From a virus (Duplodnaviria > Caudoviricetes): a DNA stretch of 52,097 nt. The notes under the pieces were generated by a model, which was given only the letters and a program-made list of their open reading frames with translations, had not been told where the DNA came from and did not search any database. The stretch spans positions 1 to 52,097 of IMG/VR virus record IMGVR_UViG_3300049847_000386. The stretch is one strand, 5' to 3'. How positions within the stretch are numbered: position 1 is the stretch's first letter; each line of letters starts with the position of its first letter. Below, piece by piece: positions 15,054 through 51,065 of the stretch. Made by a program: the position numbers and the translations under genes.

Positions 15054-15092
15054 TGTATTATTTGTTTTTCGTTAATATTAAAATTCTCGTAT

Positions 15093-15755: not shown

Positions 15756-15778
15756 TTTTACTTTCTCGTTATTAAACC

Positions 15779-15887: not shown

Positions 15888-15900
15888 TTTCATGGGTTCA

Positions 15901-28970: not shown

Positions 28971-29101
28971 TTGAACAGGGGTTTGATGTGGTAAATCGCT
29001 CCACAGACCGCTCCGTAGACCGCGTTAGCCAGCACGACCATCCAGAAGCCTGGGGAGGTGTAAAGGCAGAATCGGCGAATGGCGCGGTGCTGGTCGCTCA
29101 T
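28967..29101 (-). CDS. Small hydrophobic protein (44 aa, not in the ORF track)
   Basis: MSDQHRAIRRFCLYTSPGFWMVVLANAVYGAVCGAIYHIKPLFK; start and stop overlap RecT and the exonuclease. Confidence 0.45.
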   Translation of the reverse strand: MSDQHRAIRRFCLYTSPGFWMVVLANAVYGAVCGAIYHIKPLFK

Positions 29102-30087: not shown

Positions 30088-30325
30088 TGCTCGTGTTGGG
30101 ATTATTGCCGTCCACATTGGCCGGACGGCGTGGCCTCGAATCGATTACTTGACAAGGTACGTCCAGTGTTGCGCCCGTTATCCTCCTCTGCATCGCGTTG
30201 AATATGCGAACCCTTTGAGGCCTGCCGCTGGGCAGCAGACCCTGGGCGATAGCCCAGCTTCGCAGGTAGTAGTTCCGGTCCTTCGCCCCGGGGCGCTCGG
30301 TCCAGTCGTAGTAGTAGCCGGTCAT
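30041..30325 (-). CDS. Hypothetical protein
   Basis: 94 aa, start coupled to the HTH gene stop. Confidence 0.45.
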   Translation of the reverse strand: MTGYYYDWTERPGAKDRNYYLRSWAIAQGLLPSGRPQRVRIFNAMQRRITGATLDVPCQVIDSRPRRPANVDGNNPNTSNGSNNEARTGHQPGL

Positions 30326-32397: not shown

Positions 32398-32676
32398 TCA
32401 TCGAATGTTGTTTGCTGATCGGACTTCTTTCAACTCGGAAATTGACAGCTGCAGACTTTTGATCGAGGCATTCAGATCAAGGCCCACTTGGCGCACCGGA
32501 CCAGTGGCATCTTGTGGCAAGCCACTGCTCAATTGAAGCCAATCGGCTTGAGCCCTCTGCAGGTCGCCGAGTGCCTTTTGCATGTTTGCAACCTGAGTGT
32601 TCATCCACCGATCAAGCCGCATACCGTTTGGCCCTTCGGTGATCATCGCCTTGCCGCCTTTGAATTGAAGTGCCAT
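32398..32676 (-). CDS. Small helical protein, MALxFxGGxA family
   Basis: Begins MALQFKGGKA; inserted between the endolysin and spanin-like genes. Confidence 0.75.
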   Translation of the reverse strand: MALQFKGGKAMITEGPNGMRLDRWMNTQVANMQKALGDLQRAQADWLQLSSGLPQDATGPVRQVGLDLNASIKSLQLSISELKEVRSANNIR

Positions 32677-32679
32677 GGG

Positions 32680-33123
32680 TTATTCGATTTCGAAGTGAGG
32701 AAGGTCTTGGAACGTGCCCTGCTCGAGGAGGATGCCGTCGCGGTCGAAGTCGCCACCCCAGCGAACTTGCAGGCCCCGCGCCTGGGCAATTGCCCGAACA
32801 ACGCCAGCAAGGTAACACAGGCTCGGGACATGGTAGGGCTCCGAGCCCACCAGCGCAATGTCCAGCGCTCGGCTCTTGGGCATGCCTGGTCCGGTGATGT
32901 GCTTGGCGGCCTTGTACAGCTCGTCCAGCCTGCCCGTGTACGCGTCCGGGTTCACCCGGCTGTTCCCCGCCCGGAAATACTCCCGCTGCTGGGCGATGGT
33001 GCGGTCGGTCTGTACCACCCGCCAGTCGAACGGGGTCGCCTTCGCGGCCTCGCGCATGACATCCGCCAGCCGGTCGTCCAGCCGGGTCATCAGCTCGAGG
33101 CTCTTGGGGTCAAGGCTGGTCAT
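32680..33123 (-). CDS. Endolysin, M15 (L-Ala-D-Glu type) peptidase
   Basis: RTIAQQ, H...ALDI, WGGDF, DLPHFE. Confidence 0.88.
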   Translation of the reverse strand: MTSLDPKSLELMTRLDDRLADVMREAAKATPFDWRVVQTDRTIAQQREYFRAGNSRVNPDAYTGRLDELYKAAKHITGPGMPKSRALDIALVGSEPYHVPSLCYLAGVVRAIAQARGLQVRWGGDFDRDGILLEQGTFQDLPHFEIE

Positions 33124-33511
33124 TCGGGTCGGGCTTCTTCTTGAAGTAGGTCACCACCTTGTCGATCACCGGGCCGATGATGGGCAGGTTCGATAGCATA
33201 GGCAGCAGGTCCAGTGCGATGGATCCTCCGGTGAAGCCCACAAGCCCGCCGCATAGCACGGTGATCTTCTCCATAAGGTGCGGATACTTCACCGCGAATG
33301 AGGCGACAGCGGCCACCTCATTCGCAGCAACCACCGCATCCGGGATCACGTAGGCCAGCGCAGCAACCACCCAGACGGAATTGATCACCCCTGATAGTTC
33401 AGCGTGGATGAACTGGCGAACGCTCCACCCATCGTGTGCGAGGTACTTTTTGGCGAGGTATGAAAGCAGGCCCAGCACCACGGCCCAATAGAAGATGGCA
33501 GGGGCGATCAT
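33110..33511 (-). CDS. Holin-like membrane protein
   Basis: About three TM segments, directly upstream of the endolysin. Confidence 0.55.
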   Translation of the reverse strand: MIAPAIFYWAVVLGLLSYLAKKYLAHDGWSVRQFIHAELSGVINSVWVVAALAYVIPDAVVAANEVAAVASFAVKYPHLMEKITVLCGGLVGFTGGSIALDLLPMLSNLPIIGPVIDKVVTYFKKKPDPNDQP

Positions 33512-33780
33512 CGGGCGACGGGAAATAGGTTTTTGATGGCCTCGCCACCTGCAAGGCCGAAGGCCAGGGCCGCGGCGTTGGCATTCACACCAAGCTGTTC
33601 AGGCAGGAAGAACAGCACACAGGCCGCGGTCAGGCCAAGGCTCAACAGGGCATAACCGTAGTGCGCCTTGAACCATTGCCAAGCAGATGGACGTGCGGCC
33701 TCGGCCTTGCCCATGGTGGACCAGTGGAACACAAGCCCGCCAAGTGCGCAAGCGAAGTAGATATACAGCTGCAGGTTCAT
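33508..33780 (-). CDS. Holin-like membrane protein
   Basis: 90 aa with about three hydrophobic segments. Confidence 0.55.
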   Translation of the reverse strand: MNLQLYIYFACALGGLVFHWSTMGKAEAARPSAWQWFKAHYGYALLSLGLTAACVLFFLPEQLGVNANAAALAFGLAGGEAIKNLFPVAR

Positions 33781-34007
33781 GCTTTCTTGGGGGTTGGGTG
33801 TTTTGCCGGAATATGACCATCATCATCGTCGTCGATCTCCAGTAGCATCGAAACCCGCTGCCGGAACAGCAGGAATGATTGCCGGATGCCGGCAACGTCG
33901 GTTTCGAGGGCGTCGAACTTGGTGACCATGCGCGAAAGGAAGTAAGCGCAAACGCTCATCAGCACGGCGATCACCGAGAGGAGGATTGTGTTCAATTCGG
34001 GTTCCAT
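33777..34007 (-). CDS. Single-TM plus coiled-coil protein (holin/antiholin-like)
   Basis: MEPELNTILLSVIAVLMSVCAYFL followed by a short coiled coil. Confidence 0.55.
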   Translation of the reverse strand: MEPELNTILLSVIAVLMSVCAYFLSRMVTKFDALETDVAGIRQSFLLFRQRVSMLLEIDDDDDGHIPAKHPTPKKA

Positions 34008-34008
34008 T

Positions 34009-34866
34009 TCAGTCGTTGGTGGCGATTGCGTAAATCCCACAAGATCCGACAGGCGAGATGGATGCGGTCACGATGTCTCGTCCGCTGATTCCGCTGTTTT
34101 CACAGGACATCACCGACGAACCTCCACGATAAAATGCCAAGATGTAGCTGTCGGTCCCGTCCGTAACGATGCATGCCCGAAGACGCTGTTCTGCCGTGGA
34201 CATGTCATTGCAGGAGGCGCAATCAGGGCTGGCATCGGTGATCATCGCCACCCGCCACACCACCGCACCACCATCCCCGCAGGTTGTGGGCGTGCTGGTG
34301 GGCACAGGCAAGGCCCCGTCGTTCTGATTCCATGGGCCGGCTGGGGAGCCCGATGGGTTGAAGTAGGTGTACAAGTATCCCGGGGTCGCCGAGCTGGTGA
34401 TCACCCAATCACCTCCAGGGGCATTGAGCATGATGCTGTCAAGCAGGCGCGTGCCGCCCACCTTCGTCCAGACCGAAGCTCCGTTCTCTTCACCATCCAA
34501 GCAGTAGGTGCCGTTCACCGCAGCGGTTCCTGCCCCGCTCACCACCCATGCCGATGTCCCGTCGACGATGGTAGCACATTCCAGCAGCGCTTCTTCCAGC
34601 GTAAGGGGTGCGGCGCATGAGACGCGCGGGGCGTAAGTGGAGCACAGCTCCGCTGATAGAACGCTGGTCACATCGCACCGGATAGCGCCAGCATTCACAT
34701 CCAGAGAAGCAAGCAGCATCCCGAGCAGCCCAGCTGCCGAATTGCAGTCCAGCGGTTCGCCCGCGTCAGCCTGGGTGATTAGCAGCCGAGCGCAGCCGTC
34801 CGCGTCCACAAGCCCGACATGCCGGACAAGTGAATCGACGCTGGCGATCGTGTTGCTGCAGTCCAT
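34009..34866 (-). CDS. Cys-rich putative virion protein with inserted beta module
   Basis: Start MDCSNT; repeated Cys-led units and a VSGAG..VNGTY module. Confidence 0.6.
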   Translation of the reverse strand: MDCSNTIASVDSLVRHVGLVDADGCARLLITQADAGEPLDCNSAAGLLGMLLASLDVNAGAIRCDVTSVLSAELCSTYAPRVSCAAPLTLEEALLECATIVDGTSAWVVSGAGTAAVNGTYCLDGEENGASVWTKVGGTRLLDSIMLNAPGGDWVITSSATPGYLYTYFNPSGSPAGPWNQNDGALPVPTSTPTTCGDGGAVVWRVAMITDASPDCASCNDMSTAEQRLRACIVTDGTDSYILAFYRGGSSVMSCENSGISGRDIVTASISPVGSCGIYAIATND

Positions 34867-34925
34867 TTTCGGGTTGGGTATGCAAAGGGCCGCTCGTCGC
34901 GGCCCTTTCACGTGGGGTGGGTCGC

Positions 34926-35165
34926 TTAGGTCTCCTCGATGAGGATGATGGCAGGCTTGCCGTCGTCGCTCACGCCGATCACGTATCGGGCGATCTGCTC
35001 CAGCGTGAGGTTGTTGCCCTCGCACTGCCGAACGCTCTCGATGTTGGCTGCGGCAGCCGATACGCGCACCGTGCGCAGGCCGTAGTTGCCAGCGATGTCC
35101 TTGACAAGGAGGCTGTTGAGCAGCTCCTCGATGCTGATGCTGATGTTGTCGCAGTTCACTGCCAT
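34926..35165 (-). CDS. Small putative virion protein with two Cys-led repeats
   Basis: CDNISISIEELL and CEGNNLTLEQIA. Confidence 0.65.
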   Translation of the reverse strand: MAVNCDNISISIEELLNSLLVKDIAGNYGLRTVRVSAAAANIESVRQCEGNNLTLEQIARYVIGVSDDGKPAIILIEET

Positions 35166-35196
35166 CGTCGTAGGTGTTGAAGGTTACCCTGGGCGC

Positions 35197-35751
35197 TTAG
35201 GCCATCGGGTTATCGATGCGGAGGGGCGCGAACTGGCTCTTCCACTTCATTTCCAGCTTCAGGATGGCGTAGTCGTCATCGCTCTCGGCGATCTCCTCCC
35301 ATCCGCGCCAGTTGACCAGGATGCCTGCGTTGCCGCCGTAGAGCTTGCCGCCCAGCGTGCCGTACCACATGCGGTACTGGCGGTTGCAGCCGGTCGCCCG
35401 GGCCGCCTCGTAGTTGGTATCGCTGTTGTCGTCCACCGTGGCAGCGAGGGTGAACTCCTGGGGGGAGTAGACCCGGCGCTGGCCGCTGATCTTCTTCTCG
35501 GTCTGCGAAGGAGCGGCGATGCTGCCAATCACCGTGAGCTCACGGATCGCGTTGGCGTTGCTGCCGCTGGCGCTGATGCGCGAGGCCCATTCGGCGGGGT
35601 CGGTCCAGTCGGTCAGCGGGTAACCGTCGTTGGACAGGTAGATAACGCTCACCTGGGCCTGAAGCAGGGCCGGGGCGCACTGGCTGAAGCTGACGGTGGG
35701 GAGGATGGCCGTGCAGTCCGCAGGGCAAACGATGGTTTCGATGGAGGCCAT
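35197..35751 (-). CDS. Putative major tail tube protein
   Basis: 184 aa, beta-rich, with its own consensus promoter; size and location fit a siphovirus tube protein. Confidence 0.6.
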   Translation of the reverse strand: MASIETIVCPADCTAILPTVSFSQCAPALLQAQVSVIYLSNDGYPLTDWTDPAEWASRISASGSNANAIRELTVIGSIAAPSQTEKKISGQRRVYSPQEFTLAATVDDNSDTNYEAARATGCNRQYRMWYGTLGGKLYGGNAGILVNWRGWEEIAESDDDYAILKLEMKWKSQFAPLRIDNPMA

Positions 35752-35773
35752 GTTGATGGTCGTGTTGTGGATG

Positions 35774-35781
35774 CAAACCTA
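35774..35781 (-). promoter_or_regulatory. Bacteroidota -7 promoter element TAGGTTTG
   Basis: Perfect TAnnTTTG in the gap, 22 nt upstream of the ATG at 35751. Confidence 0.6.
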
Positions 35782-35831
35782 TGCGGGCGAATGTGCCGGA
35801 CAACGCGTCGGGCATCATTGTAACGATTCGT

Positions 35832-37832
35832 TCACGGGCAGTTGAAGAATACCTTTGAGCCGTAGCCGATGATGCACTCGCCCACCATCACCTTGATGCG
35901 GTAGTATTCATTCGTGGCGTTGGGGCGCGTAATATCCACGCCCACCAGCCAATCGTCCGCCGACAATTCGATGTCGGTGTCCTCCCACGTGGTGCCGTCG
36001 CTGCTTCGCTGAAGCACCCCAACATGCCCAGGCATGACCACCGCGGCCACGGACTGCACGCAGTCGCCATCCACCTCTTCGGTCGGTGCTTCGTATGCGA
36101 TCAGCGCCACGCTCGACCAGCCCAGCGTGTTCAGGTCGAAGTAGACGTGGTACGGCGATCCTTCACCCCGAACAATTTGGGCCAATCCACTTTCGCATGT
36201 GGTGTAGGGCTGGAACGCATCGCCAGTGTAATAGGCGAATCGCGGCTGATTGCGGAACAGGTAGTAGTCGTCGTTCGCTAATGTCCCGTCATCGAATCCG
36301 GCCGCACTCACACAGGATTCACGGCAAGGTGGATCGAAGTCATCGCAGCAGGCCACCGTTGCGCTTTCCAATTGAAAGGTGATTGTGACCTCGGCCAAGC
36401 ACTCGCCGAAGTCCTCCTGCCAATCCACCGCCACCCGCACGTTGGTCATCACGTCGGGGGAAAGGCCCACTGCGGTCAGACGCACGGTATCGTACAGCGG
36501 CAGGTCCGAAAGAGCGTCCGCGATGTACCACGGCCGCAGGCCCAGCTTCAGCGTCCACGTGGTTTCCTTTCGCTTGGATACATCGATGCGCGAACCGTCC
36601 GCCTTGGTCTTCTGCTCGATCACCGTATTCACCTCGGGCACGATCGGGTAGATGGACTGTTCGAGGAACATCGCCTGCACGAATCCACCGGCCGCGTAGG
36701 TGTTGCCCACGTTGCCGCAGTTGGACCAGTCCAGCTTGTAGAAACACTCGTTCACCGTGGCTGCGCATCCGATGGTGAGCCCGGTCAGGCACCCATCGAA
36801 CCCACCAGAAGGGAACACGGTCAGCAGCGTGTCCGCGCCCACGAAGAAGGTGAACGTGGTCGTTCCGTCCTCTTCGATGATGGCCATGACGCTCTGAAAT
36901 CCCAGCTCGCCAACATGCACGTTCAGCTCGCCGGTTGTCCTGCCCGTGACCGTAAGCGTGAACTGCATCACCGATTCGCTGCACGCCGAAATGTGGTCCT
37001 GCGGCGTGAAGTTCATTCGCCGGAACTCCGGTGTCTGGCCAGTTCCGGTGAAGCACATGCCATCGCCGTCCACGGTCATTGGATCTGTTGCAAGGCCCTG
37101 CCAGGCACCAGCATTGAACCGGTACCAGTTGCCGCTCTTCGAATCGTACCAGCTCGTTGATGTTCCGGGCGTGGAGGATGCCCAGCTTCCGCCCGAATAG
37201 GTGTAAAGCAGGTTGTCGCCGAAGTTGGCCACCAGCGCACCTTCAACGGCAAATGCAGGATCGGTCGGGGTGCCCGCCACCAGCGTGGAGCCAATCAGCG
37301 TTCGACCATCCCCGAACTGAACATGCCACAACCCGGAAGGATTGGCCTGTGAACTGTACAGGCCAGCGGCGAACGGATCCACGGTAAGGCTGTTGGGCAG
37401 GTACGTGCGACATACAACGGTCACGGGCTCGCTGTAGTAGGTCACCCCGCCGCTCACGATCCGAGCCCAATACCGGCCGCTGTCAATGGCGCTGTCGCCG
37501 AAGACCTGCTCGTTGTAGGTGATGTAATCCACCCCGGACGCTTGGAAGTAGGTCAGGTTGATGATCTGGTCCGCAAGGTCCAGCACCATCGCGGCATCAT
37601 CCCCGGGGCCGTCGTACAGCTTCCAGCTCGTCACCAGGTCCATGGACGAAGGCCGCACGAACTGGAACGGGGGCAGGCTGTCACCGGGCCAGATCAGCGC
37701 GAACGAACAACTGTCCCAATCCCACAGATCGGCGCACTGCCGCTGGTTCCCGTTCAGCCAGGCCGCCGAATCGTACCAGCGCCATGGCGTCTTGATCTGG
37801 CCATTGAAGTTGGGGATTGACGGGCTGGGCAT
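35832..37832 (-). CDS. Minor tail / baseplate-type structural protein
   Basis: 666 aa, beta- and Cys-rich, downstream of the tape measure gene. Confidence 0.6.
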   Translation of the reverse strand: MPSPSIPNFNGQIKTPWRWYDSAAWLNGNQRQCADLWDWDSCSFALIWPGDSLPPFQFVRPSSMDLVTSWKLYDGPGDDAAMVLDLADQIINLTYFQASGVDYITYNEQVFGDSAIDSGRYWARIVSGGVTYYSEPVTVVCRTYLPNSLTVDPFAAGLYSSQANPSGLWHVQFGDGRTLIGSTLVAGTPTDPAFAVEGALVANFGDNLLYTYSGGSWASSTPGTSTSWYDSKSGNWYRFNAGAWQGLATDPMTVDGDGMCFTGTGQTPEFRRMNFTPQDHISACSESVMQFTLTVTGRTTGELNVHVGELGFQSVMAIIEEDGTTTFTFFVGADTLLTVFPSGGFDGCLTGLTIGCAATVNECFYKLDWSNCGNVGNTYAAGGFVQAMFLEQSIYPIVPEVNTVIEQKTKADGSRIDVSKRKETTWTLKLGLRPWYIADALSDLPLYDTVRLTAVGLSPDVMTNVRVAVDWQEDFGECLAEVTITFQLESATVACCDDFDPPCRESCVSAAGFDDGTLANDDYYLFRNQPRFAYYTGDAFQPYTTCESGLAQIVRGEGSPYHVYFDLNTLGWSSVALIAYEAPTEEVDGDCVQSVAAVVMPGHVGVLQRSSDGTTWEDTDIELSADDWLVGVDITRPNATNEYYRIKVMVGECIIGYGSKVFFNCP

Positions 37833-37838
37833 GGGTGA

Positions 37839-38243
37839 TTACCAATTTGCGATGTAGTGGATTCCGGCGCCGTCCAACTCGGTGGGTGGAAGCGTTATCG
37901 GCAAGGGCTCCAGAGACGGAGATCCAGTTAGCGACAGGACAATATTCATCGTGTCTCCGCTGACGTTGAAGAAGAACAGCGTGTCCTTCCTGTAGATGTT
38001 CGCCTCACTTCCCCCGAGCGTGTACAGCAGCCCCGGGCTATCCGCATTGCACACCAGACGGTAGGGGTGGAACAGCTGCGTTGCCCGAGATACAAATACG
38101 CTCACTGAATCACAGGGGCCATCGGACACCAGGATGTGCGCTTGTCGGAAGATGGGGTATTCAGGACCGGCCATGTCGTCGTGCGACTTGTCGCAAGAGA
38201 TCAACAGCGTCAATGCGACCAATGCCAATGTTGCAGCTTTCAT
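37839..38243 (-). CDS. Lipoprotein
   Basis: MKAATLALVALTLLIS-C lipobox followed by DKSHDD, resembling the Bacteroidota lipoprotein export signal. Confidence 0.75.
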   Translation of the reverse strand: MKAATLALVALTLLISCDKSHDDMAGPEYPIFRQAHILVSDGPCDSVSVFVSRATQLFHPYRLVCNADSPGLLYTLGGSEANIYRKDTLFFFNVSGDTMNIVLSLTGSPSLEPLPITLPPTELDGAGIHYIANW

Positions 38244-38265
38244 CGTTGTTCGGATTTTGGGAAAG

Positions 38266-40476
38266 CTACCAAGAATAGGTCAATGACAGTGTCAATACGC
38301 CCTTGTCGTCATACTCTGCGGACACCACGCGGGCCTTCCGGTTCAGCAGCGCACCGAGCTTTGTGATCAGCGGAAGCCGTGGGTCAAAGTCGAAGATGGA
38401 GCAGCACAGCTTCACGATGAATTGGGCTTGCTTGATCGTCGGCTCGTACCCTTTGAAATCCACGTCGGCATCATTCAGCCGGCCGGATGGAAGGTATCGG
38501 TTCCATAGCCAGTAGTTTGCCATGATGCTGGCTGTGCTCAAGGGCTCATTCGTGACCAGCCCGCCCGTCAGCTTGCCGGTTGCGATGATTACGTTATGCC
38601 CGGAAACTCCATCGGTGCACGCCAGAAAGGTCCACCCGTTCTTGTCCACTGCGCCATCGTTCAGCGTCCCGCTCGATTGAACCAGAGCGATGTCGGTGAT
38701 CACCTCGCGCAGCTCCTTTGTTTTGACGACCAGGCTTTCGCGCCCACCAACGCAGGAACCGGAATACACGATGTCCCTGCCGATGAAGTCCTCGCCCGAA
38801 GACGCCATCCATTCAATGCGCTCAAGCGACGGGATCTCGGCACTGAGCGATTCGTACTCAAGCGCCTCCGCATTCTCGAACGACCGGACATCAATGCCGT
38901 CCTGCTCGCTCCAGTAGATCCAGTGCTCAAGAACAAGCCGCCCTTCGTCGTCGATGTCCCAGAACACTTGGAACACGGACAGCATACGGAGCATGCCGCT
39001 AACCGTCCACTCCCCGATCCTTCCTGGGTTGGTGGCCGTTGGAAGTAGCGCATCGTCGTTGTGGATGAGGAACAGGTCGGTCAGGTCGTTGGTCACATAC
39101 GAATCCCCGTTGGCGACCAGCACGTAATTCTCTGTGCTTACCACGTCCGGGTTCCATTGGAAGAAGTCGCTCTTTACCGATCGCACAGAGCATCCCAGCT
39201 TCTCCAGCCCCCACGTTAGGCAGTCGATCAATTTCCTGGCCCGCGTGTATTCTATTGGGGTGCCGTTGTTCAGGCAGATGTACCAATGCCCAAGGTCAAA
39301 GCGATTCACTATCCGCGTCTTCTCCTCAAGGTCGGTGTTCCCAGATTCAAATGGATCCAGGTGGTACATCACCATTGCATAGGAACCATCGCAAGGAGAA
39401 TCATACGGCGGTGTCGTAGCCTGCAGCGGGGTCCCGAACGTGTATGCGATGGTTGGGTGCCTTGTCCAGAATGAACGACCGAACGGAATGGGCGGCGAAT
39501 AGGCCCCAGAACAGCTATTTGCCCTCAGCACCCAACCACTGCCGGGTGGTGAGACGGCCACACCATTGACGCACTCCGTTACGGCCACCTCGCGCCAATA
39601 CAGGTTCCTGCCGTCGAAGTCCAGGCCAGTATCAGCATAGCCCATCAGCCCCATGGTGCCCGCCTCCCCAAGACTGCCATACGATCCGGTGACTGAGAAC
39701 TGAATTCCCTGCGGGATCACAATGGCGGATACTGTTTCCGGCGGCACCGCAAGAAGGTTCATCTTGCGGTCGACCCGGTCGAGGATGCACGAGTATCGGT
39801 CCAGCACCGTGGGCCGAATGCTGAACTGGCAGCTATCGTAGTTGAAGCCTCCTGCACCAACGCTGAAGACCCCGGTCCACAAAGTGCGCCACCTGCCGCT
39901 GCACTTCTCCTGGTATCGAATGAACACGTCCTCGCACCTGCGGCCGCTGTCCATGTTCATCGCGTTGAAGCGCGTATAATCTGCACCAACGAAAACCAGC
40001 GTTGTTGACAGCTTGCGGCGGAAGAATATCTGCCCGTCGTTCAGGTTCCTCTCATCGGTAAACTTCGCCGGGTTCAGCGGGTGAACATCGATGAAGAACT
40101 CAGGGGTTGCTGGCAATACTTCAGCGGATGGGCGCGGCAATATGCCGCTTCCGGGCGGACTGTAGGACCCGTCGTACACAAGCCACAGGTTCGCATCCGC
40201 AAGGTTGCTGCTTGCCCGAGCGTACTTGATGTTCAACGAGGATGTCGAAGCAAGGCCGCCGCTGGTTAAAAACCATACGCCCAACCCTGCCGAATAGTAG
40301 AACGTGTCCTCGCCCAATACGCCTCCCAGCTTGGTCCATGATTCAGCATCGCCGAAGGGTGCGGCATCCTTGCAATATCGGCCGTTCACCGAACCTGATC
40401 CGGCCAGAGACAGAATGAATCCGCCTGCCGGACACAACCGATACGGGTCCGCAATAAGTTGCCAGCGCTTGTCCAT
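38266..40476 (-). CDS. Tail tip / hub-type structural protein
   Basis: 736 aa directly after the tape measure gene. Confidence 0.6.
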   Translation of the reverse strand: MDKRWQLIADPYRLCPAGGFILSLAGSGSVNGRYCKDAAPFGDAESWTKLGGVLGEDTFYYSAGLGVWFLTSGGLASTSSLNIKYARASSNLADANLWLVYDGSYSPPGSGILPRPSAEVLPATPEFFIDVHPLNPAKFTDERNLNDGQIFFRRKLSTTLVFVGADYTRFNAMNMDSGRRCEDVFIRYQEKCSGRWRTLWTGVFSVGAGGFNYDSCQFSIRPTVLDRYSCILDRVDRKMNLLAVPPETVSAIVIPQGIQFSVTGSYGSLGEAGTMGLMGYADTGLDFDGRNLYWREVAVTECVNGVAVSPPGSGWVLRANSCSGAYSPPIPFGRSFWTRHPTIAYTFGTPLQATTPPYDSPCDGSYAMVMYHLDPFESGNTDLEEKTRIVNRFDLGHWYICLNNGTPIEYTRARKLIDCLTWGLEKLGCSVRSVKSDFFQWNPDVVSTENYVLVANGDSYVTNDLTDLFLIHNDDALLPTATNPGRIGEWTVSGMLRMLSVFQVFWDIDDEGRLVLEHWIYWSEQDGIDVRSFENAEALEYESLSAEIPSLERIEWMASSGEDFIGRDIVYSGSCVGGRESLVVKTKELREVITDIALVQSSGTLNDGAVDKNGWTFLACTDGVSGHNVIIATGKLTGGLVTNEPLSTASIMANYWLWNRYLPSGRLNDADVDFKGYEPTIKQAQFIVKLCCSIFDFDPRLPLITKLGALLNRKARVVSAEYDDKGVLTLSLTYSW

Positions 40477-43973: not shown

Positions 43974-44267
43974 GGCTTACAGCGGAGTTTTTCGCGCGCT
44001 CGCGCAGTTTTTCGAAGTGGATGTCCAGCGCATCGTAGAAGTCGTACACGTCCATGCTGCGCCATGCCTGGGCCTCGCTGGCGACACCACCGGATAGGAC
44101 GTAGAGCAGTTCATGATTCCTCCGCTTAATGGTCTGCAGCCTTACTTCGAAGTGTTGTCGCCCTGCGCCTTCTTCTCGGGTTCGATCGGCTTCGAAGTAT
44201 CGCGGGAAGCGACCTTGTAAGCCTCGAAGAAGCCGGGAATGGAACGCAGGGCAAAGCCGAAAAAAAA
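43882..44267 (-). CDS. Tail assembly chaperone, -1 frameshift extension (gpGT-like)
   Basis: Open -1 frame from the slippery site; ends with a MDVYDFYDAL-type segment just before the tape measure gene. Confidence 0.55.
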
Positions 44268-44699
44268 CTGCATGTCTATGCCCTCCTCGCGCCAGTCGTC
44301 GAGCTTCTTCTGGATGATCCCGTCGTCGATGAATCGAACGTCCTCGCCCTCGTAGTTGATGAACAGCGCGGCCATCTTCAGCACCGCAGGCTGCTGCTTC
44401 TCGCCCACCAGAGTGGAGCCGATGAGCATGTCGCGGAGCAGCACGGCAAGGTCGGCGAACACTGGCTTCCCTGCTGCCACCTGATTGCACATGTCGTAGG
44501 CCTCGCGCAGGCCCTCCATGAACTGGTTGAAGGATCGCGCCATGCCGATCTCCACCGAGAGCAGCTCGTAGGCCTCCCAGCGGTCCATGCTTACGCTCCT
44601 GCTTACGCGGTAGCGCGTGCCGTTCGCCGTGAAGGCTTGAACATCGGGGGCGAGCTCCTTGAGCTGGCGCCCGGGTTTCAGATTCGGTTCTTCAGCCAT
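44142..44699 (-). CDS. Tail assembly chaperone (gpG-like)
   Basis: 185 aa upstream of the tape measure gene; contains CAG TTT TTT TTC. Confidence 0.65.
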   Translation of the reverse strand: MAEEPNLKPGRQLKELAPDVQAFTANGTRYRVSRSVSMDRWEAYELLSVEIGMARSFNQFMEGLREAYDMCNQVAAGKPVFADLAVLLRDMLIGSTLVGEKQQPAVLKMAALFINYEGEDVRFIDDGIIQKKLDDWREEGIDMQFFFGFALRSIPGFFEAYKVASRDTSKPIEPEKKAQGDNTSK

Positions 44700-45007
44700 T
44701 TGTATGCGCCGTTAATGGCGACGGCGAAAAGTACAGCGGAACATCCAGCGAGGATGTGCAGGAGGAAGATGCCATGCACATAGGCGAAGTGCGACCACAG
44801 GGCCAGCTGCCCCGAGGTGCACAGAACGCACCCGCCGATGGGGGATGTGATCCACGACCTCCATCCACCGCGCTCCTGCCATTCGGATGCCCAGCGGAAA
44901 TACCACCGTAGCGGGCTGTCGTCCGGGCCGAAGACCGATACCAAGGCCACCCCGATAATGGCGCAGCAGAAGCCCCAGAACAGGGCAAGGATCAGGCTGG
45001 CGATCAT
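44678..45007 (-). CDS. Small membrane protein with CxxC (DUF1360-like)
   Basis: Hydrophobic segments around PIGGCVLCTSG. Confidence 0.6.
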   Translation of the reverse strand: MIASLILALFWGFCCAIIGVALVSVFGPDDSPLRWYFRWASEWQERGGWRSWITSPIGGCVLCTSGQLALWSHFAYVHGIFLLHILAGCSAVLFAVAINGAYKWLKNRI

Positions 45008-47109
45008 GGGATCGGGGTCGCAATGATGGTGGCGCTCAGAATGGTGACGGTGGCCGATGTCCCGCCGCGGGCTACCCTGAGCTGAAGTGTGCTGGTGCTT
45101 CCAGATGTGAGCACATTGCCCTCCAGCATCGCGAACAGTTCGGTCGTGCCCGTGCTACCTGTTGCAATGGACCCGGCATCATCCGTTGGGATCTGTGCTA
45201 CTACTGTTCCCGTCGATGCCACTGGTTGTGCCCGGTTGAAGTTGCGGGCCGTTGGCGATCCCGTCATGGTCACCGACAAACCAATGCCGGTGGCTGAGGT
45301 TGGGCACGTGTATGTGACAATGGCCTTCACCTGGTATGTGGTGCTGGCGTCCAGCGTCACCGCCGCGCCGGTCAGGTTGGTGTAGGTCGCGCTGTTGAAC
45401 GTGAAGTTAGACACCTTGGCCTGCTTCGCGATTGCCATATACCGAGCATCAGCCTGTGCGATGGTGGGTACGTTCGAGGATCCGGTTCCCGTGCTCACGT
45501 AGGCCGCCGTTCCGAAGGTGCCGCCCGCTGCCGATGTCAGGCTGGATGCCGTCACACCGGAGGCCAGGGCGCTCCCAGTGAGCGTGCCGGCCGGTGCAAC
45601 CACGGCATTCGTGCTTGCCGCCGTTATCAGCCCCTTGCCGTTAACGGTGAAGGACGGGATGGCCGTAGAGGAACCGAAGCTGCCGGTGGTGCTGTTGACC
45701 GTCGCAAGGGTGGCCGCAAAGCTGCCGGTGCCCGACCCGGTAACATCGCCGGTGAGCGTGATGGTCTGGTTGCCCGTGTTCGTACCGGATAGGTTGCTGC
45801 CCGTGACCGTGCCAGTAGCAGCAACGGAAGTCGGCGTGATGGCCCCGAGGGAAAGGGTGATGGCCGGCGTGGTGGTGGCATTATCCACGGTGCCGGATAC
45901 TCCGTTCGCGGTGTTCACCGATACGCTGGTCACCGTTCCCGTATTCGTTGCACTCAGGGTGGCGCCGGACATGGACAACCCGATGCCAAGAGTGATCTCC
46001 TGAGCAGCCCCGGCACCCGCCGCGGAACCGCGACCGATCAATCGGCTTGCGGTCGTGCTGGTGTATTGATCTCCGGTGTTGGTACCGGAGCTGGTGCCAC
46101 TGAATGTGCCGCTCTGCGTGGCCAGGGTTCCCAGGCCTGTGATATCAGTCGTTGGGTGCGTGTGGGCGCTGGGTGCGAAGGTGGACGGAATGCCTGTGAG
46201 CGAAGAATAGGCATGCGTGTGCCCGAGCAAACTCCATCGCGCATCCCCGAGCGAATTGAAATCCGTGATGCCGTACCCTCCAACCGTGGTCGGCTTGCTC
46301 GTGAGTGAGGCGAACGTGTGCGTGTGCGCGGCGGTGGCGTAATCGGTGGATGCAGTGGTTGCCGCGCTGCCAAGGCCAAGATTCGTCCGCGTAGTAGCCG
46401 CCCCGGACCCGAACCATTGCAGGGCACCGCTGTTTGTCACGTTCAGCACAGGTCCAGAACCGTTCTCAAAGGCGCACACATTGCCGGTGCCAGCGATGAA
46501 CTTGCCTGCCGGGTCAATGTCGCCTGCCGCTGCCACCAATGCGATGCCGGGGCCGCTGTAAGCCTGTATTGCGATCCCAGCATCTGATTGGGCATTTATT
46601 GCCACGGTTCCGGGCGTGTCCGAGTAAGCGCTAAGGCCTCCGGCTGCGTTGAACTTGACCACCTTTCCGCCATCGGTTGTGCCATTGCCACCTGTGCTTC
46701 CATCCGTAATGTTTGCGCTCACGTGCGTGTGCCCGAGAAGGCTCCACCTGGCATCGCCAAGCGAATTGAAGTCGGTGATTCCGTAACCAGCCACCGTGGT
46801 GGGCCTGCTGGTCAGACTTGCGAACGTGTGCACGTGGCCGAGCAAGGACCACCGCGCATCGCCAACGGTATTGAAGTCCGTGATGGCGCTGGCCGTGTGC
46901 ACGTGCGATGCGTTGGCGAAGTTGCTCTGTGCAAGCAGCGTGAAGACCCCGGAGCCGTTGATCGAATACAGGCTGCTGTTCACCTTCGTCACGTAGCTCT
47001 TCGAATCCAGAAGGCCGCTCCCTTTGAAGAACAGGGCAGGGTCGCCCGGGGATTGCGATCGGGCGATGAAGGACAGGCCAATCAGAAGGATGGGGAGTAA
47101 GCGTTTCAT
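45004..47109 (-). CDS. Tail fibre-like protein with N-terminal signal peptide
   Basis: HxH fibre repeats (HTHTFASLTSKPTT..GYGITD), Thr/Gly/Ser-rich shaft, MKRLLPILLIGLSFIARSQ leader. Confidence 0.7.
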   Translation of the reverse strand: MKRLLPILLIGLSFIARSQSPGDPALFFKGSGLLDSKSYVTKVNSSLYSINGSGVFTLLAQSNFANASHVHTASAITDFNTVGDARWSLLGHVHTFASLTSRPTTVAGYGITDFNSLGDARWSLLGHTHVSANITDGSTGGNGTTDGGKVVKFNAAGGLSAYSDTPGTVAINAQSDAGIAIQAYSGPGIALVAAAGDIDPAGKFIAGTGNVCAFENGSGPVLNVTNSGALQWFGSGAATTRTNLGLGSAATTASTDYATAAHTHTFASLTSKPTTVGGYGITDFNSLGDARWSLLGHTHAYSSLTGIPSTFAPSAHTHPTTDITGLGTLATQSGTFSGTSSGTNTGDQYTSTTASRLIGRGSAAGAGAAQEITLGIGLSMSGATLSATNTGTVTSVSVNTANGVSGTVDNATTTPAITLSLGAITPTSVAATGTVTGSNLSGTNTGNQTITLTGDVTGSGTGSFAATLATVNSTTGSFGSSTAIPSFTVNGKGLITAASTNAVVAPAGTLTGSALASGVTASSLTSAAGGTFGTAAYVSTGTGSSNVPTIAQADARYMAIAKQAKVSNFTFNSATYTNLTGAAVTLDASTTYQVKAIVTYTCPTSATGIGLSVTMTGSPTARNFNRAQPVASTGTVVAQIPTDDAGSIATGSTGTTELFAMLEGNVLTSGSTSTLQLRVARGGTSATVTILSATIIATPIP

Positions 47110-48413
47110 TCGTTGATCTGGATTTTAGCAAGGGTGCCGTCTTCGAGCGTGGTGGTCAGCACACCGTCCATGTTGTCCCGCACTGGCAACAGGAAGATGC
47201 GCCCGGTGTCCACAATTTTGTCCACCGTTTCCCCGGTGCCAGGGTACATGCGGCCACTGTCGAGGATGTGCACCATCTGCTGCGTGTTGGCAATGGTCGT
47301 GCTATCCGCAAGGGCTGCGGCGCGGTCTGTGTAGGGAAGGATGGTCGGCATGATGGTGTAGGAATCGCCGTCGTTTACATGGGCCAGGAGCGTGGTGCCG
47401 TCGAAGTCGAATATGTCCACCCCCACGCATGGAGGCGGGCATAACGTGGCCACGAACGGCGTCATTGCAGGAAGCGTCAATGTGGAACCGTCACTATCCG
47501 TGTGGTCCACGTCGGGGAGGTTCAGCGTGCCGCCCGAAAGCACGTACTGGTCATACGTTGAATCGCTGTTCAGTACGTGCCCTGCCAAGCACTCGGGGCA
47601 TTCTGGGCAGATGGGGCAATCGCTGGGAACATCGATGGTGCCCCCGCTGGCCACCGTGCCGTATGGAAGGCCGTCGCGCAGCACATTGGCATCCGCGCAG
47701 GGCCCTCCGGGATCGCAGTCCAGGCAGTCCAGCTTCTGCTGAAGGGTGAGGCCGTTCGTGGGATCGTTCAGCTCCTCGCAGGAGAACTCCCGTGGGTGGC
47801 GACGGCGGTAGGTGCTGGGTGGGGTCCAGCAGGTCACGTCCGATCCGCTCACCACAGGCTCGCAGCCGGGCCGGATACGGAACTCGGTGGCGATATCGAT
47901 GGCGAAGGCGTCGAAGGGCCACAGGAGGTACTGGCGGGCCGCGTCGGGGAAGGTGTAGGCCGCGAAGATGCTCGGTCCCTTGCTGGCCACCCCGGACAGG
48001 CGGTGGCGGATCCCGATGAAGGGGTCGAGGTTGTAGGGGCCGGAATTCAGCACGCCCAGGAACTGCTGCAACACCGCGTCGGCCGCATTGGCATCCCCGC
48101 CCAGCTTCGCCGTGTTCACCCAGCAGACCAAGCGTAGGTTGCTGGTCCAAGACTGCCCCCGTGTCCGGCTCACCACCGGCACCAGGCCCCGGTCCTCGAA
48201 GAAGACGATGCACTTGTAGCGCTCGTCGGGCACCAGGTCCAGCAGCTCGTTGTCGCCGCACTGGAGCGGGTCCTCCACGCCGCTGCCGACCGGGATAGTG
48301 ATCCGACCACCCTGCCGCTCAAAGCTGACCGCGCGAACAATCCCGCCCAACTTCTCCACGTAGGAGAACTGTTGGATCCGGAGCTTCAGTAGTTCGGCGA
48401 TCGATGCGTTCAT
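47106..48413 (-). CDS. Tail terminator/completion-like protein with Cys/Pro-rich C-terminal extension
   Basis: Position after the neck gene; extension contains CPICPECPEC and a repeated SGGT(I/L) motif. Confidence 0.5.
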   Translation of the reverse strand: MNASIAELLKLRIQQFSYVEKLGGIVRAVSFERQGGRITIPVGSGVEDPLQCGDNELLDLVPDERYKCIVFFEDRGLVPVVSRTRGQSWTSNLRLVCWVNTAKLGGDANAADAVLQQFLGVLNSGPYNLDPFIGIRHRLSGVASKGPSIFAAYTFPDAARQYLLWPFDAFAIDIATEFRIRPGCEPVVSGSDVTCWTPPSTYRRRHPREFSCEELNDPTNGLTLQQKLDCLDCDPGGPCADANVLRDGLPYGTVASGGTIDVPSDCPICPECPECLAGHVLNSDSTYDQYVLSGGTLNLPDVDHTDSDGSTLTLPAMTPFVATLCPPPCVGVDIFDFDGTTLLAHVNDGDSYTIMPTILPYTDRAAALADSTTIANTQQMVHILDSGRMYPGTGETVDKIVDTGRIFLLPVRDNMDGVLTTTLEDGTLAKIQINE

Positions 48414-48417
48414 TGGG

Positions 48418-48954
48418 TTAAGACTGAAGCTCTTTCTGCGCCCAATCGGTCATGCGCTCCTTGAGGCCTTTGGCGAGCGTGTCCTTCTCCTCCTTCGAAA
48501 GCCGGGTCCAGCCGGGGCGGTATTCGGCGTTGCCCGCCATCTTGTCCCGAGTCTCCTGGTCCCGACCGCCCACCCGGACAACGTAGGCGTTGCCCTTGAA
48601 GCCAGCCTCCACGATGCCGATGGAATTGAGCATCTGGCCAGACAGGGTGAAGTCCACGATGCCCCGGTAGCGGCCCACCGGAGCCCCGGGGCTGGCCGCC
48701 TTGGTCTTGCGCTCGGCCTTCTTCTTGGCCCCCTCCTTCTTCGCCTTCTGGCCGATGGCGCCCCGCTTGAAGCGCTCGTAGATCGGCGTGTACGGGGTGA
48801 ACGCCCTGCCGTCCGCATCCTTCCCCGTCTCGCTCACCCGGCGCTGCACAAGGGAGTATCCCGTGGTGGCAACCGTCTCCATTTCGGAGGCGATCTTCAC
48901 CCGGGCACCCTCGGCCAGCTTGCCGATGCGCGTGGAAAGGTCGTCGAGGTTCAT
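48418..48954 (-). CDS. Neck / tail completion (virion morphogenesis-like) protein
   Basis: Basic protein with FTPYTPIY...VDFTLSGQMLNSI. Confidence 0.65.
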   Translation of the reverse strand: MNLDDLSTRIGKLAEGARVKIASEMETVATTGYSLVQRRVSETGKDADGRAFTPYTPIYERFKRGAIGQKAKKEGAKKKAERKTKAASPGAPVGRYRGIVDFTLSGQMLNSIGIVEAGFKGNAYVVRVGGRDQETRDKMAGNAEYRPGWTRLSKEEKDTLAKGLKERMTDWAQKELQS

Positions 48955-48988
48955 CTTAGCGGGTGGACGTGGTGCTCATGGGGATGCC

Positions 48989-49222
48989 TTAAGCGGTCAG
49001 ATTGCCGCTTGCAATACGGGCGACATACACTGCCTCGTTGATGGCTTGGTCGATGGTGTTCAGCTTGCGCTGGATGGTTGCGCCCTCTTCGCCGCCAAGT
49101 TTTCGCGCTTGGTCGTAGAGGGTCATCTTCGCATTGCGAAGGCGCTCAAGTCCAGCATCGATATCGTTTGCCAGTCGAGCCCTTGGGTCGACCGCCTTCC
49201 CTCCTGTGAATTTAAGTGCCAT
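48989..49222 (-). CDS. Small helical protein, MALxFxGGxA family
   Basis: Begins MALKFTGGKA. Confidence 0.75.
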   Translation of the reverse strand: MALKFTGGKAVDPRARLANDIDAGLERLRNAKMTLYDQARKLGGEEGATIQRKLNTIDQAINEAVYVARIASGNLTA

Positions 49223-49223
49223 G

Positions 49224-50372
49224 TTATCCTCGGATTGTGCCCGTGCTCAGCCCCCAAGTGTCCTTGCACATGAGGCAGTCGCCGTAGCGGTTTATGTTCT
49301 CGGGAAGCGCCAGCGTGGGGCACAGGTAGTCCACCACGCGAGCCTGGTATTCCTTTTCGAAGTCCGCCACCATCTTCTCCAGCACATCGCCGGCCGTCAT
49401 GGTGTAGCGGTTGATGTTCGTGCTGGCCAGCAGGCTCCGCAGCAGGTTCGCACCCGCCTTGAAGCGCACCGCGTGGGCCATCACCTTCTGCACGTTGTCC
49501 GTGGTGTAGTTCGGAACGTCCGGGCAGAACGTGGTGGTCTGGTCGCAGTCGAATTCCACGTGCAGCAGGATGCCGTCCGTGGTGTTCTTGGTGGCCCAGC
49601 TGTCCCGGGTCTCCAAGGTGGTGCCCTGCGTTCCCGCAGCCATGGCCCACTCGGTCCAGACCTTGCCGCCCTTCTGCTGGTGGCTCATGTACTGCGGACG
49701 TTCAAGGCTCCAGTACGGGGCGATCCCGCCGCACCCGCAGTCGATCAGGGTGTTCATGGCCCGCAGCCCGTCCGTGGGTGCGAAGACGAACCAGTAGCGC
49801 GGGTTCTCCGTGCCCAGGTGCTCCATGGACAGCTCGATCGCCTCGGGCAGGATGGTCCAGTTCGGGCGGTTGGCCTCGTGGGTCAGCACCGTCCCGTAGA
49901 TGGGGTCCGTGCCGTATCGGTCGTACACCTGAAGCGTGATGTTGCCAGCGGTCTTGAAGGCCGTGCCGATGCCCTTCACCCGGCAGATGCCTCCGCGGAT
50001 CTTCGCCAGCTGCACGGTGATTCCGTGGTAGGGCTTGCGCAGGGTGGTGCTGTCTGCAGTGGACTTCTTGTCGTCGCCGATGTAGGCCTGCCCGGACTGG
50101 CGGCGCACCGAGGCCTTGTCGCCCAGACAGCCCATCAGGTCGGCCTTCAGGTCCTCCACCGCGTTCTCCCGGGCGCGCTCGAGCATCGTCCACAGGCTCC
50201 CCTCCCCGCAGTCCCGCTTGGCATCCGCCATGCGCAGGGTCAGCCCCGGAAGCTCGTCCAGATAGATCCCGCTGGCGGAAGTCCCGGCGTCAACGGGGCG
50301 GTCCTCAACGCACTCGCAGTCGGTGCGCGAAAGGCCGACGATGTTCTCGAAGCAGGTGGAGGTGGTGCTCAT
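49224..50372 (-). CDS. Putative head-tail adaptor with large insertion domain
   Basis: 382 aa, Cys-rich; first large gene after the MCP. Confidence 0.55.
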   Translation of the reverse strand: MSTTSTCFENIVGLSRTDCECVEDRPVDAGTSASGIYLDELPGLTLRMADAKRDCGEGSLWTMLERARENAVEDLKADLMGCLGDKASVRRQSGQAYIGDDKKSTADSTTLRKPYHGITVQLAKIRGGICRVKGIGTAFKTAGNITLQVYDRYGTDPIYGTVLTHEANRPNWTILPEAIELSMEHLGTENPRYWFVFAPTDGLRAMNTLIDCGCGGIAPYWSLERPQYMSHQQKGGKVWTEWAMAAGTQGTTLETRDSWATKNTTDGILLHVEFDCDQTTTFCPDVPNYTTDNVQKVMAHAVRFKAGANLLRSLLASTNINRYTMTAGDVLEKMVADFEKEYQARVVDYLCPTLALPENINRYGDCLMCKDTWGLSTGTIRG

Positions 50373-50381
50373 GGGTCTGCC

Positions 50382-50687
50382 TTAGTATGAATCCCAGACG
50401 TACTTCTGGCTCAACTTATCATTGAAGACCTTATAAGCAGTCTTGAGCTGGTTGAATGCCGCCTTCACGTCTGGCGAGAGTGCAGCAACGTTGTCCTCGG
50501 CTCCGTAGACCTTGTCGCCCAATTCCAAGATGGCGTGGCGCAGATCTCCCGCGCTGTCAGGTACCGGAATGCGGCCGCGGATCTTGCTCTTGGCCCAATC
50601 GGGAACCTCGGCCCATTGGGCAGCCGTCCAGCCCGTGGGCGGTCCTCCGACAGTTGCAGCCTTCCCTCCTGTGAATTTTAGTGCCAT
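50382..50687 (-). CDS. Small protein, MALxFxGGxA family
   Basis: Begins MALKFTGGKA. Confidence 0.75.
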   Translation of the reverse strand: MALKFTGGKAATVGGPPTGWTAAQWAEVPDWAKSKIRGRIPVPDSAGDLRHAILELGDKVYGAEDNVAALSPDVKAAFNQLKTAYKVFNDKLSQKYVWDSY

Positions 50688-50702
50688 GGTTCAGTTGTGG
50701 TG

Positions 50703-50987
50703 TTATTGCTTAACGATGTTGCCAGAGTATTGGGCGCGGTTCAGCGCTTGCCGAGCATCCTGAATGGCCTTCTGCACAGCCTCGGCCTTCGTGGGATTGT
50801 ACTCGCCCGGCTTGGCAGATTGCATCAGCTCAGAGAGTGCTTGAGAGGCGCCTTCCAAGTCGCCCGAATCAAGCGCAGCCTTCAGCCGCGCCTCGCGCTG
50901 GCGCAGCCATTGTAAGCGTGCAACGGTGTCCTTAGCGAGTGGCTGCATCCGTGGGAATGCGCTTCCGCCTTTGAATGTAAGTGCCAT
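50703..50987 (-). CDS. Small helical protein, MALxFxGGxA family
   Basis: Begins MALTFKGGSA. Confidence 0.75.
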   Translation of the reverse strand: MALTFKGGSAFPRMQPLAKDTVARLQWLRQREARLKAALDSGDLEGASQALSELMQSAKPGEYNPTKAEAVQKAIQDARQALNRAQYSGNIVKQ

Positions 50988-51057: not shown

Positions 51058-51065
51058 CAAATGTA
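51058..51065 (-). promoter_or_regulatory. Bacteroidota -7 promoter element TACATTTG
   Basis: Perfect TAnnTTTG just past the MCP terminator and upstream of the MALxF genes. Confidence 0.6.

Follow-up and report, generated by a model that had tools for sequence, protein, structure and literature searches.

The window analysed here is the whole of IMG/VR record IMGVR_UViG_3300049847_000386, a Caudoviricetes phage genome of 52,097 bp with direct terminal repeats and a completeness rating of 100%, and its minus strand carries four dispersed genes for small proteins that open with nearly the same peptide (hereafter the tag), MAL-x-F-x-GG-x-A in this phage. Specifically, i) tag94 (94 amino acids [aa], 50703-50987) begins MALTFKGGSAFP (MALTFKGGSA) and is the first gene after the putative capsid gene; ii) tag101 (101 aa, MALKFTGGKA, 50382-50687) begins 15 nt after tag94 and directly precedes a gene for a conserved 382-aa protein; iii) tag77 (77 aa, MALKFTGGKA, 48989-49222) begins 1 nt past the stop codon of the 382-aa gene and precedes a gene for a 178-aa protein; and iv) tag92 (92 aa, MALQFKGGKA, 32398-32676) begins 3 nt past the endolysin stop codon and is followed by a gene whose product has an N-terminal membrane segment. 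The first-pass annotation had described these four open reading frames (ORFs), had placed all of them between late genes, and had held their bodies (the residues past the tag) to be dissimilar; the ORFs and the late gene order were confirmed, and comparison of the four bodies with one another by blastp gave no significant match (best E 0.16 and 0.41). Together with the relatives described below, they indicate that a small clade of uncultivated phages encodes an open-ended repertoire of small basic proteins (~66-138 aa, most of them helical) that share one dodecapeptide.

At the DNA level the tag itself, the first 12 codons of each gene (50952-50987, 50652-50687, 49187-49222, and 32641-32676, all on the minus strand), forms a repeat family (D3) whose members are alike from 2-3 nt before the ATG and fade by codon 10-12. 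A degenerate DNA pattern for the tag matches the window 4 times, whereas none of 100 dinucleotide-preserving shuffles has a match, and the copies at 49194-49222 and 50659-50687 are the same at 28/29 bases (97% over 30 nt), as the first-pass annotation had reported. A 64-aa ORF at 9615-9809 (MALKNRKVQIY...) starts with MALK and lacks the tag, so the first four residues alone are not specific. The claim that two of the genes each stand behind their own TACATTTG did not survive: the sole copy in the window lies at 51058-51065 on the minus strand, 71 nt before the tag94 start codon (ATG at 50987), where it occupies the second hairpin's loop in the spacer between the capsid gene and tag94, and the window has 6 occurrences of TAnnTTTG where 5.6 would be expected; with a single relevant copy and a chance-level count, tag101 therefore has no TACATTTG of its own. 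The same spacer folds into strong hairpins (z = -3.46); a simple terminator scan did not list a hairpin there. Among contigs of four sequencing runs, a 705-nt contig of run X2 runs from the capsid gene into a tag matching 50659-50691 and ends 33 nt in; such a contig cannot show loss of tag94 because the tag is a repeat. Other contig joints in the four runs have short sides of 20-28 nt, and uncovered tag77 and tag94 bodies are not evidence.

A search of IMG/VR with the capsid protein found 8 related contigs (57-79% identity), and a relaxed tag motif run on the window, five larger records, and three fragments identified 21 tag ORFs in 7 of these 9 sequences, all of 72-105 aa and all on the late-gene strand: 4 in the window (G000, complete), 5 in G002 (complete), 1 in G004 (complete), 2 in G001, 7 in G003, and 1 each in G005 and L006. 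L005 and L012 have none; both fragments stop short of the region past the capsid gene. One metagenome scan added 10 loci, 9 of which carry 14 tag ORFs of 53-131 aa on the late-gene strand (the 53-aa ORF is clipped by a contig end), the remaining locus being a chance match within a long frame. A strict tag DNA pattern over all of IMG/VR and a capsid alignment scan returned only contigs already known. Searched with a profile of 32 tag proteins, a word-indexed database yielded 24 proteins of 54-95 aa, all unnamed, and a HMMER search with the same profile against 1.84 billion representative proteins gave 75 hits at E<=0.001. Most of these (69/75) are small proteins of 66-138 aa matched from the N-terminus; 64 of them have the whole tag, read from the first Met, while 4 had been called from Met3 and 1 starts MPV. 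Six long repetitive proteins, aligned over several stretches and lacking the tag, make up the rest. The motif search that the first-pass annotation had proposed as a check of body diversity and late position thus led to 54 body clusters, with tag genes in late slots.

Among the records examined the motif never occurs inside longer ORFs, and a role as an internal cleavage site was ruled out, the motif being found at N-termini only. We were unable to find matches to the capsid protein or tag94 among 50,697 cultured-phage records by tblastn, and the motif is in no curated family (Pfam, PHROGs) nor in a cultured phage record, the literature not having been searched for the motif itself. Tags of the MAMKVQGGRMVP type (for example L035, 10427-10657) have Met at positions 3 and 10, and public gene calls often begin at Met10 (68-aa forms) or Met3 (P0019, P0021-P0025, P0046, and P0064).

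The consensus in relatives is MAVKFQGGKAVP. Over the 51 tags tabulated, positions 1 and 2 are always M and A (51/51), position 7 is G in 49/51 and position 8 in 50/51, position 6 is Q in 43/51, and positions 11 and 12 are V (38/51) and P (41/51); the remaining positions are V/M/L at position 3 (28/16/7 of 51), K/R at position 4 (35/13 of 51), F/V/Y at position 5 (30/16/5 of 51), R/K at position 9 (26/20 of 51), and A/M at position 10 (29/19 of 51). The codons are far less uniform: over 35 tag genes, Gly7 is encoded by GGC (16), GGA (11), GGG (7), or GGT (1), and Gly8 by all four codons. Because third positions vary while the residues are kept, and because substitutions are conservative (V/M/L, K/R, F/Y/V), the tables indicate that selection in the tag acts on the peptide. 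It is accordingly very improbable that the conservation is purely a matter of DNA or RNA, with the tag serving as a translation-initiation or recombination cassette whose peptide has no role, even though in relatives the repeated unit starts 15-60 nt ahead of the ATG, the A-rich first codons stand in a genome that is GC-rich, and two of the window tags are nearly identical in DNA; nor is the A/C-rich leader lacking a Shine-Dalgarno (SD) sequence peculiar to tag genes, since it is common to the whole genome, where even a loose SD-like 4-mer is found in only 10/54 genes. An internal SD sequence at CAAGGAGG was also considered and was ruled out, codon 7 being GGC in 16/35 tags. The SD-less A/C-rich leader, the motif TAC[AG]TTTG (20-30 nt upstream of 6/35 tag genes in relatives, all 6 within 40 nt), and the label of one metagenome-assembled genome (MAG) with a related capsid gene together suggest that the host is probably a member of the Bacteroidota, for which a TAnnTTTG motif and SD-less initiation are typical.

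The form of the tag tracks phage lineage, not body. The 77-aa 'LKRDG' body family carries MAVRFQGG, MAMKVQGG, MAVKFQGG, or MAVRYQGA, and the tag101 body family carries MALKFTGGKA, MALKFSQGKA, or MAVKFKGGKAVP; conversely, the tags of the window lineage (the four in the window and two close homologues) all have Leu3 (6/6) and all lack Gln6 (6/6), whereas elsewhere Leu3 is found in 1/45 and a residue other than Gln6 in 2/45 (Fisher p 4e-7 and 2e-6). The tag94 family reads MALTFKGG-SAFP-RMQPL in the window lineage and MAMKVQGG-RMVPL in relatives, and the window N-terminus looks as if one tag form had been grafted before the remnant of another. A concerted, lineage-wide tag could reflect either a common reader protein or gene conversion among tags, and the data fit both. 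In an AlphaFold2 model of tag94, residues 1-15 have a predicted local distance difference test (pLDDT) score <50 and are modelled as disordered, and from positions 13-14 onward the tag gives way to a variable linker rich in G/P/S/N/A.

Behind this constant peptide the bodies are diverse. The first 58 distinct proteins fell into 26 clusters when compared by blastp over the residues past the tag, and 117 distinct proteins fell into 54 clusters after the HMMER search. Among the 325 pairs of the first 26 clusters compared by local hhalign, only one, the tag101 family with G003_7331 (44.9% probability over 82 columns), rose above reversed-sequence controls; the next best real pair reached 6.5%, and the best reversed control 10.0%. 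Because the profiles are shallow, we describe the bodies as not detectably homologous and not as unrelated. Pfam and PHROGs gave no family above threshold for any of 95 members scanned (63 without a family at E<=0.001, 32 with sub-threshold coiled-coil noise only), and a search of BFVD with the tag94 fold found nothing at E<=0.001. Most bodies appear to consist of a linker, a helix, a Gly-containing loop, and a second helix; the tag94 model has three helices (19-41, 44-57, and 65-93; mean pLDDT 65.8 from a 5-sequence alignment), and at least one family (an 84-aa protein of L044, and P0026) does not look helical by sequence. The tag94 body family is common to relatives at the same position (orthologues 53-93% identical), and tag77 has a weak positional orthologue in G002 (31% over 42 aa). 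Orthologous bodies have ratios of nonsynonymous to synonymous substitution (dN/dS) of 0.12-0.37, similar to those of neighbouring structural genes, these ratios being rough because dS is saturated.

The loose common plan and length, the single cluster pair linked by profile comparison, and weak full-length blastp alignments (E 0.003-0.4) would all be expected if the tag proteins were one old paralogous family of helical hairpins whose N-terminus is simply the most constrained part, for example an oligomerisation or fold element. We regard such a family, which had been named in advance as the finding that would overturn the first-pass proposal, as distinctly improbable: 324/325 cluster pairs are no better than reversed controls, at least one body (the L044 84-aa protein, P0026) is non-helical by sequence, the tag lies outside the modelled fold, and near-identical phages carry different bodies in one slot.

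The last of these points comes from a comparison of G002 and G003, whose late genes are 97-98% identical in DNA. G003 has two additional tag genes flanked by a direct repeat of ~100 nt that spans the leader together with the 3' end of the gene before it and the initial 40 nt of the tag ORF. An 81-aa body has taken the place of a 77-aa body in the slot ahead of the 175-aa gene, and a 105-aa body that of a 78-aa body in the slot behind it; in both cases alignment is near-perfect through the leader and 18-29 nt of the tag ORF, then random, with homology resuming at the stop codon or at the start of the next conserved gene. Across all the G002/G003 differences, homology ends 18-40 nt into the tag ORF. 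Since near-identical phages have different bodies in one slot, these are replacements, not divergence in place.

The window preserves what is, as judged from its sequence, the footprint of a cassette that moved with its 3' flank. Immediately after tag77, a 34-nt scar at 48958-48991 on the minus strand (88% identical to 50351-50384, family D16) forms a dead 7-codon ORF, a copy of the stop codon, spacer, and first 7 codons of the 382-aa gene that make up the 3' flank of tag101; tag101 and tag77 thus have a common 5' tag (28/29) and a common 34-nt 3' flank with dissimilar bodies between. Similar scars lie between cassettes in G002, namely a dead 'ATGACCCTCTAA' copy of the start of the 175-aa gene and pieces of its 3' end. 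Between two tag genes (L008 7945-8133, G002; also in G003) there is a tag-less 62-aa ORF surrounded by fragments of the start and end of the 175-aa gene; a tagged homologue exists (P0076), and the ORF looks like a cassette that lost its tag. Such comparisons support cassette exchange bounded by the tag, with the leader and tag forming the 5' border of each cassette and the start of the next conserved gene the 3' border. The first-pass suggestion that the conserved 5' DNA doubles as a recombination handle holds insofar as cassette borders coincide with the tag in both G002/G003 and the window scar, whether or not crossovers fall inside it. A plausible engine for the exchange, by inference from gene content, is the phage's own system for recombination at short homologies, which is encoded in the replication region and formed by a RecT annealase (29101-30117; Pfam PF03837, 8e-29) and a YqaJ-type exonuclease (28221-28970; Pfam PF09588, 5.6e-21), both encoded on the minus strand.

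The slots themselves lie within the late gene order. In the direction of transcription, a ParB-domain DNA methylase is followed by a DUF5681 small protein, the large terminase, the portal, proteins of 310, 121, 235, and 86 aa, a 314-aa scaffold-like protein, and the 343-aa capsid-like protein; then come tag94, tag101, the 382-aa protein, tag77, the 178-aa protein, a 435-aa protein, a 701-aa repeat-bearing fibre-like protein, a 1165-aa tape-measure-like protein, and more tail genes, and finally three small membrane proteins, the endolysin, tag92, and two membrane or secreted proteins. The ends of the record interrupt the capsid-like gene (minus strand) at the 127-bp terminal repeat, so that most of it occupies 51142-52097 and the first 25 codons are found at 128-203; the ORF was read across the repeat. 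It has the highest GC content at third codon positions (GC3) in the genome (0.96), directly follows the scaffold-like gene, and is conserved in relatives; its product matches nothing in Pfam or PHROGs, and its closest named ESM Atlas cluster is Phage_capsid_4, a label on 45% of the members and a lead only. From position, GC3, conservation, and this lead we call the protein capsid-like, without confirmation of the fold.

The junctions that house tag genes are of four kinds, namely those that follow the capsid, 382-aa, 178-aa, and endolysin genes, the last being used in both the window and L040 (with a different body). The conserved 382-aa late protein (49224-50372, minus strand) has tag genes on both sides and is conserved in all relatives; its AlphaFold2 model (pLDDT 60) has a beta-sandwich core, and Pfam and PHROGs gave no match, ESM Atlas unnamed viral clusters only, and Foldseek no PDB match at E<=0.001 and otherwise unnamed viral matches only. 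The conserved 178-aa late protein (48418-48954, minus strand) has tag genes before it and, in relatives, also after it, and the endolysin (32680-33123, minus strand; PHROG 465, E 2e-23) is 52% identical to that of L040. In the three complete genomes (with 4, 5, and 1 tag genes) tag genes are confined to late regions. Most of the tag genes overall begin 1-15 nt past the preceding stop codon. L044 has no tag gene adjoining its capsid gene, and a distant low-GC relative that preserves the order capsid, 367-aa protein (a homologue of the 382-aa protein, 28% identical), and next gene has no small ORFs in these junctions. Because this relative has the same head module and none in these slots, we conclude from the gene maps that the tag proteins are accessory to the virion module and not core parts of it.

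The position of many tag genes directly after the capsid gene, and the strand-like alternation of hydrophobic and polar residues at tag positions 3-6, invite comparison with external decoration or cement proteins, some of which, such as lambda gpD, anchor via an N-terminal strand; exposed helical bodies might then evolve fast. Yet decoration proteins of the lambda gpD and T4 Soc kind have one lattice-fitting fold and a fixed gene number, neither of which is seen here, where genomes carry 1-7 tag genes and the bodies form 54 dissimilar clusters. Moreover, the tag genes have the lowest codon adaptation in the genome, unlike the capsid protein, L044 lacks a capsid-adjacent tag gene, and one slot lies in the lysis cassette, so that a decoration role is improbable.

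Taken together, these findings lead us to favour, tentatively, the reading that the dodecapeptide is an address label for loading into the virion, read by one conserved partner that would most likely belong to the head as it assembles. The small basic proteins that a phage happens to carry would then be loaded into the virion and delivered with the DNA, and since no cassette could do without the label, the leader-plus-tag repeat would double as a homology patch for exchange of bodies, possibly via RecT and YqaJ. We favour an address label because it accounts for most of the observations (a selected and disordered tag, basic bodies, late-only position, turnover, and lineage co-variation), and loading into the virion because a changing repertoire produced solely late in infection would be of greatest use when carried by the particle. 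The pI (isoelectric point) of all 117 tag proteins is 8.9-11.5, and that of the bodies alone has a median of 9.5 with 9/117 below 7; 11/22 other small proteins of this phage reach pI 8.9. Capsid targeting, packaging, injection, and anti-defence activity are putative, proposed by analogy with the systems discussed below. A bolder version, in which the dodecapeptide is a new, protease-independent loading signal and the late slots are integron-like, with >50 interchangeable effector families pre-loaded to strike the next host, seems doubtful to us; any small basic protein that gained the leader and tag would enter by short-homology recombination, be packaged, and be delivered.

The tag might instead bind a host or phage factor unrelated to the particle, the proteins acting late in the infected cell, where the reader could be a protease or adaptor (for timed degradation), a chaperone, or a nucleic-acid machine, and the roles could include lysis timing, superinfection exclusion, or DNA handling. 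A slot inside the lysis cassette in two lineages is in keeping with this, as are a tag that is N-terminal and disordered in the model, uniformly basic bodies that would equally suit nucleic-acid binding in the cell, and the failure to identify a protease or other head-specific reader. We nevertheless consider action confined to the cell unlikely, since early functions would hardly be served by a variable arsenal that appears late only, unless it is carried to the next cell, most slots adjoin the capsid gene and its neighbours, and no host protein with the same label was found, the tag pattern occurring in 0/401 sampled genomes from the phylum of the MAG with a related capsid gene (reversed control 1).

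Several observations weigh against loading into the virion. Pfam and PHROGs identify no prohead protease among 39 window proteins, many head-module proteins being without a family; T4 removes its capsid-targeting sequence (CTS) with a head protease, and T4-style cleavage and release would therefore lack a candidate enzyme here. The slot in the lysis cassette would not be predicted by a purely head-related role. The four tag genes are 4 of the 5 with the lowest GC3 (0.56-0.67) among 54 genes (tag94 0.64, tag101 0.67, tag77 0.60, and tag92 0.56, the lowest of all), which argues against high abundance and has no bearing on packaging. No long tag-bearing protein, and hence no enzyme-sized cargo, was seen among 8000 scored candidates, which is weak evidence; no body matches a known family, so that effector activity is conjecture; and homology that ends in the tag would also be expected if whole cassettes with similar tags were swapped by other means. 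As for the reader, co-folding of the G002 capsid protein with its 91-aa tag protein (one monomer pair, taken from a relative because the window capsid gene is split by the record ends) scored 0.00 and speaks neither for nor against binding, and mimicry of the scaffold was ruled out, the 'KVKGG' near the C-terminus of the scaffold-like protein lying in an unconserved Gly-rich linker.

The closest functional analogue of the tag is the T4 system of CTS and internal proteins (IPI, IPII, and IPIII, with variable counterparts in T-even phages); judged by eye, no resemblance of the tag to the T4 CTS is apparent. According to PMC3012670, T4 internal proteins are diverse and have only the CTS in common, which targets them to the scaffolding core; they exit along with the DNA, and one of them, IPI*, inhibits a restriction enzyme. 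In both systems a short N-terminal peptide is the sole common part of varied, rapidly changing small late proteins, and hypervariable loci keep the targeting sequence (here G002 vs G003, with 1-7 genes per record). The head module here is of another, much smaller scaffold-plus-capsid type, and packaging here is putative.

Encapsulin cargo peptides are usually C-terminal and have another consensus. In PMC8802124 they are described as short terminal peptides on flexible linkers that dock unrelated cargo inside an HK97-fold shell without proteolysis, in a pocket that is largely hydrophobic and offers one or two ionic contacts. Like them, the tag is short, is disordered in the model, combines hydrophobic with basic residues, and leads into a linker, so that by analogy its docking mechanism may be nearer to that of encapsulin cargo peptides than to that of T4; the shell here differs in being a phage capsid that also takes up a 52-kb genome, and capsid binding is hypothetical.

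The genome dynamics resemble modular shuffling mediated by the PeSL elements of T4-like phages. As presented in PMC2839356, these are promoter and stem-loop repeats that act as homology patches for modular shuffling, and near-identical phages differ by insertion, deletion, or replacement of the ORFs they flank; the G002/G003 differences are similarly bounded by a repeated element. PeSLs, however, are intergenic promoter-terminator units in early regions, whereas here the element is the leader plus the first 12 codons, hence also protein-coding, without such a make-up (TAnnTTTG at chance, TAC[AG]TTTG upstream of 6/35 only), the cassettes are promoter-less inserts in late operons, and the linker is under selection as a peptide. 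The MuF polymorphic toxins of temperate phages, according to PMC5576092 and PMC12226406, are encoded in the head module and join a conserved N-terminal head-associated part to variable C-terminal payloads. That part is a whole domain, in contrast to the 12-residue peptide here, and the payloads are recognisable toxins with immunity genes; from their length (66-138 aa) and the result of the Pfam scan (a family above threshold in 0/95 members) we conclude that the tag proteins are not polymorphic toxins of the MuF type.

The remainder of the genome deserves brief comment. GC content is ~62% genome-wide, no tRNA genes were found in the 52,097-bp window, and the minus strand holds nearly all genes. 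A low-GC island at 14000-16000 (GC 0.45 vs ~0.62 elsewhere) adjoins two glycosyltransferase genes (12545-13717, GT1-like; 13438-14202, GT2-like). The ParB-methylase gene (7844-9112), directly upstream of the terminase genes, encodes a single 422-aa protein in which a ParB N-terminal domain is joined to an N6/N4 DNA methylase (PHROG 498, E 1.6e-112). The 310-aa protein (2917-3849) has a positional counterpart in a 301-aa protein of the distant low-GC relative (L059, 472-1377), whose C-terminal motif we take to be typical of MuF/SPP1 gp7-like minor head proteins; Pfam does not call that family for the window protein. The 701-aa fibre-like protein (45004-47109) contains internal direct repeats with ~105-510 nt spacing (families D1 and D2) and weakly matches PF12789, a phage tail repeat family (E 5e-5, under the cut-off), and a 642-aa protein (19455-21383) with a C-terminal F5/8 type C (discoidin) carbohydrate-binding domain is encoded amid the replication-side region, far from the tail genes.

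We wish to emphasise that the comparative pattern is solid and that loading into the virion is putative. Whatever the tag does, cassettes are exchanged in these phages around a linker that is selected as coding sequence, and as a natural case this one is unusually clean. Should the tag prove to be a packaging label, the T4 internal-protein strategy would have a second, independent instance, here with a small scaffold-type head, no recognisable protease, and a poorly studied host group; at least 54 small-protein families would become candidate injected counter-defence or takeover factors, and the portable 12-residue label would be a simple handle for putting foreign proteins into capsids.

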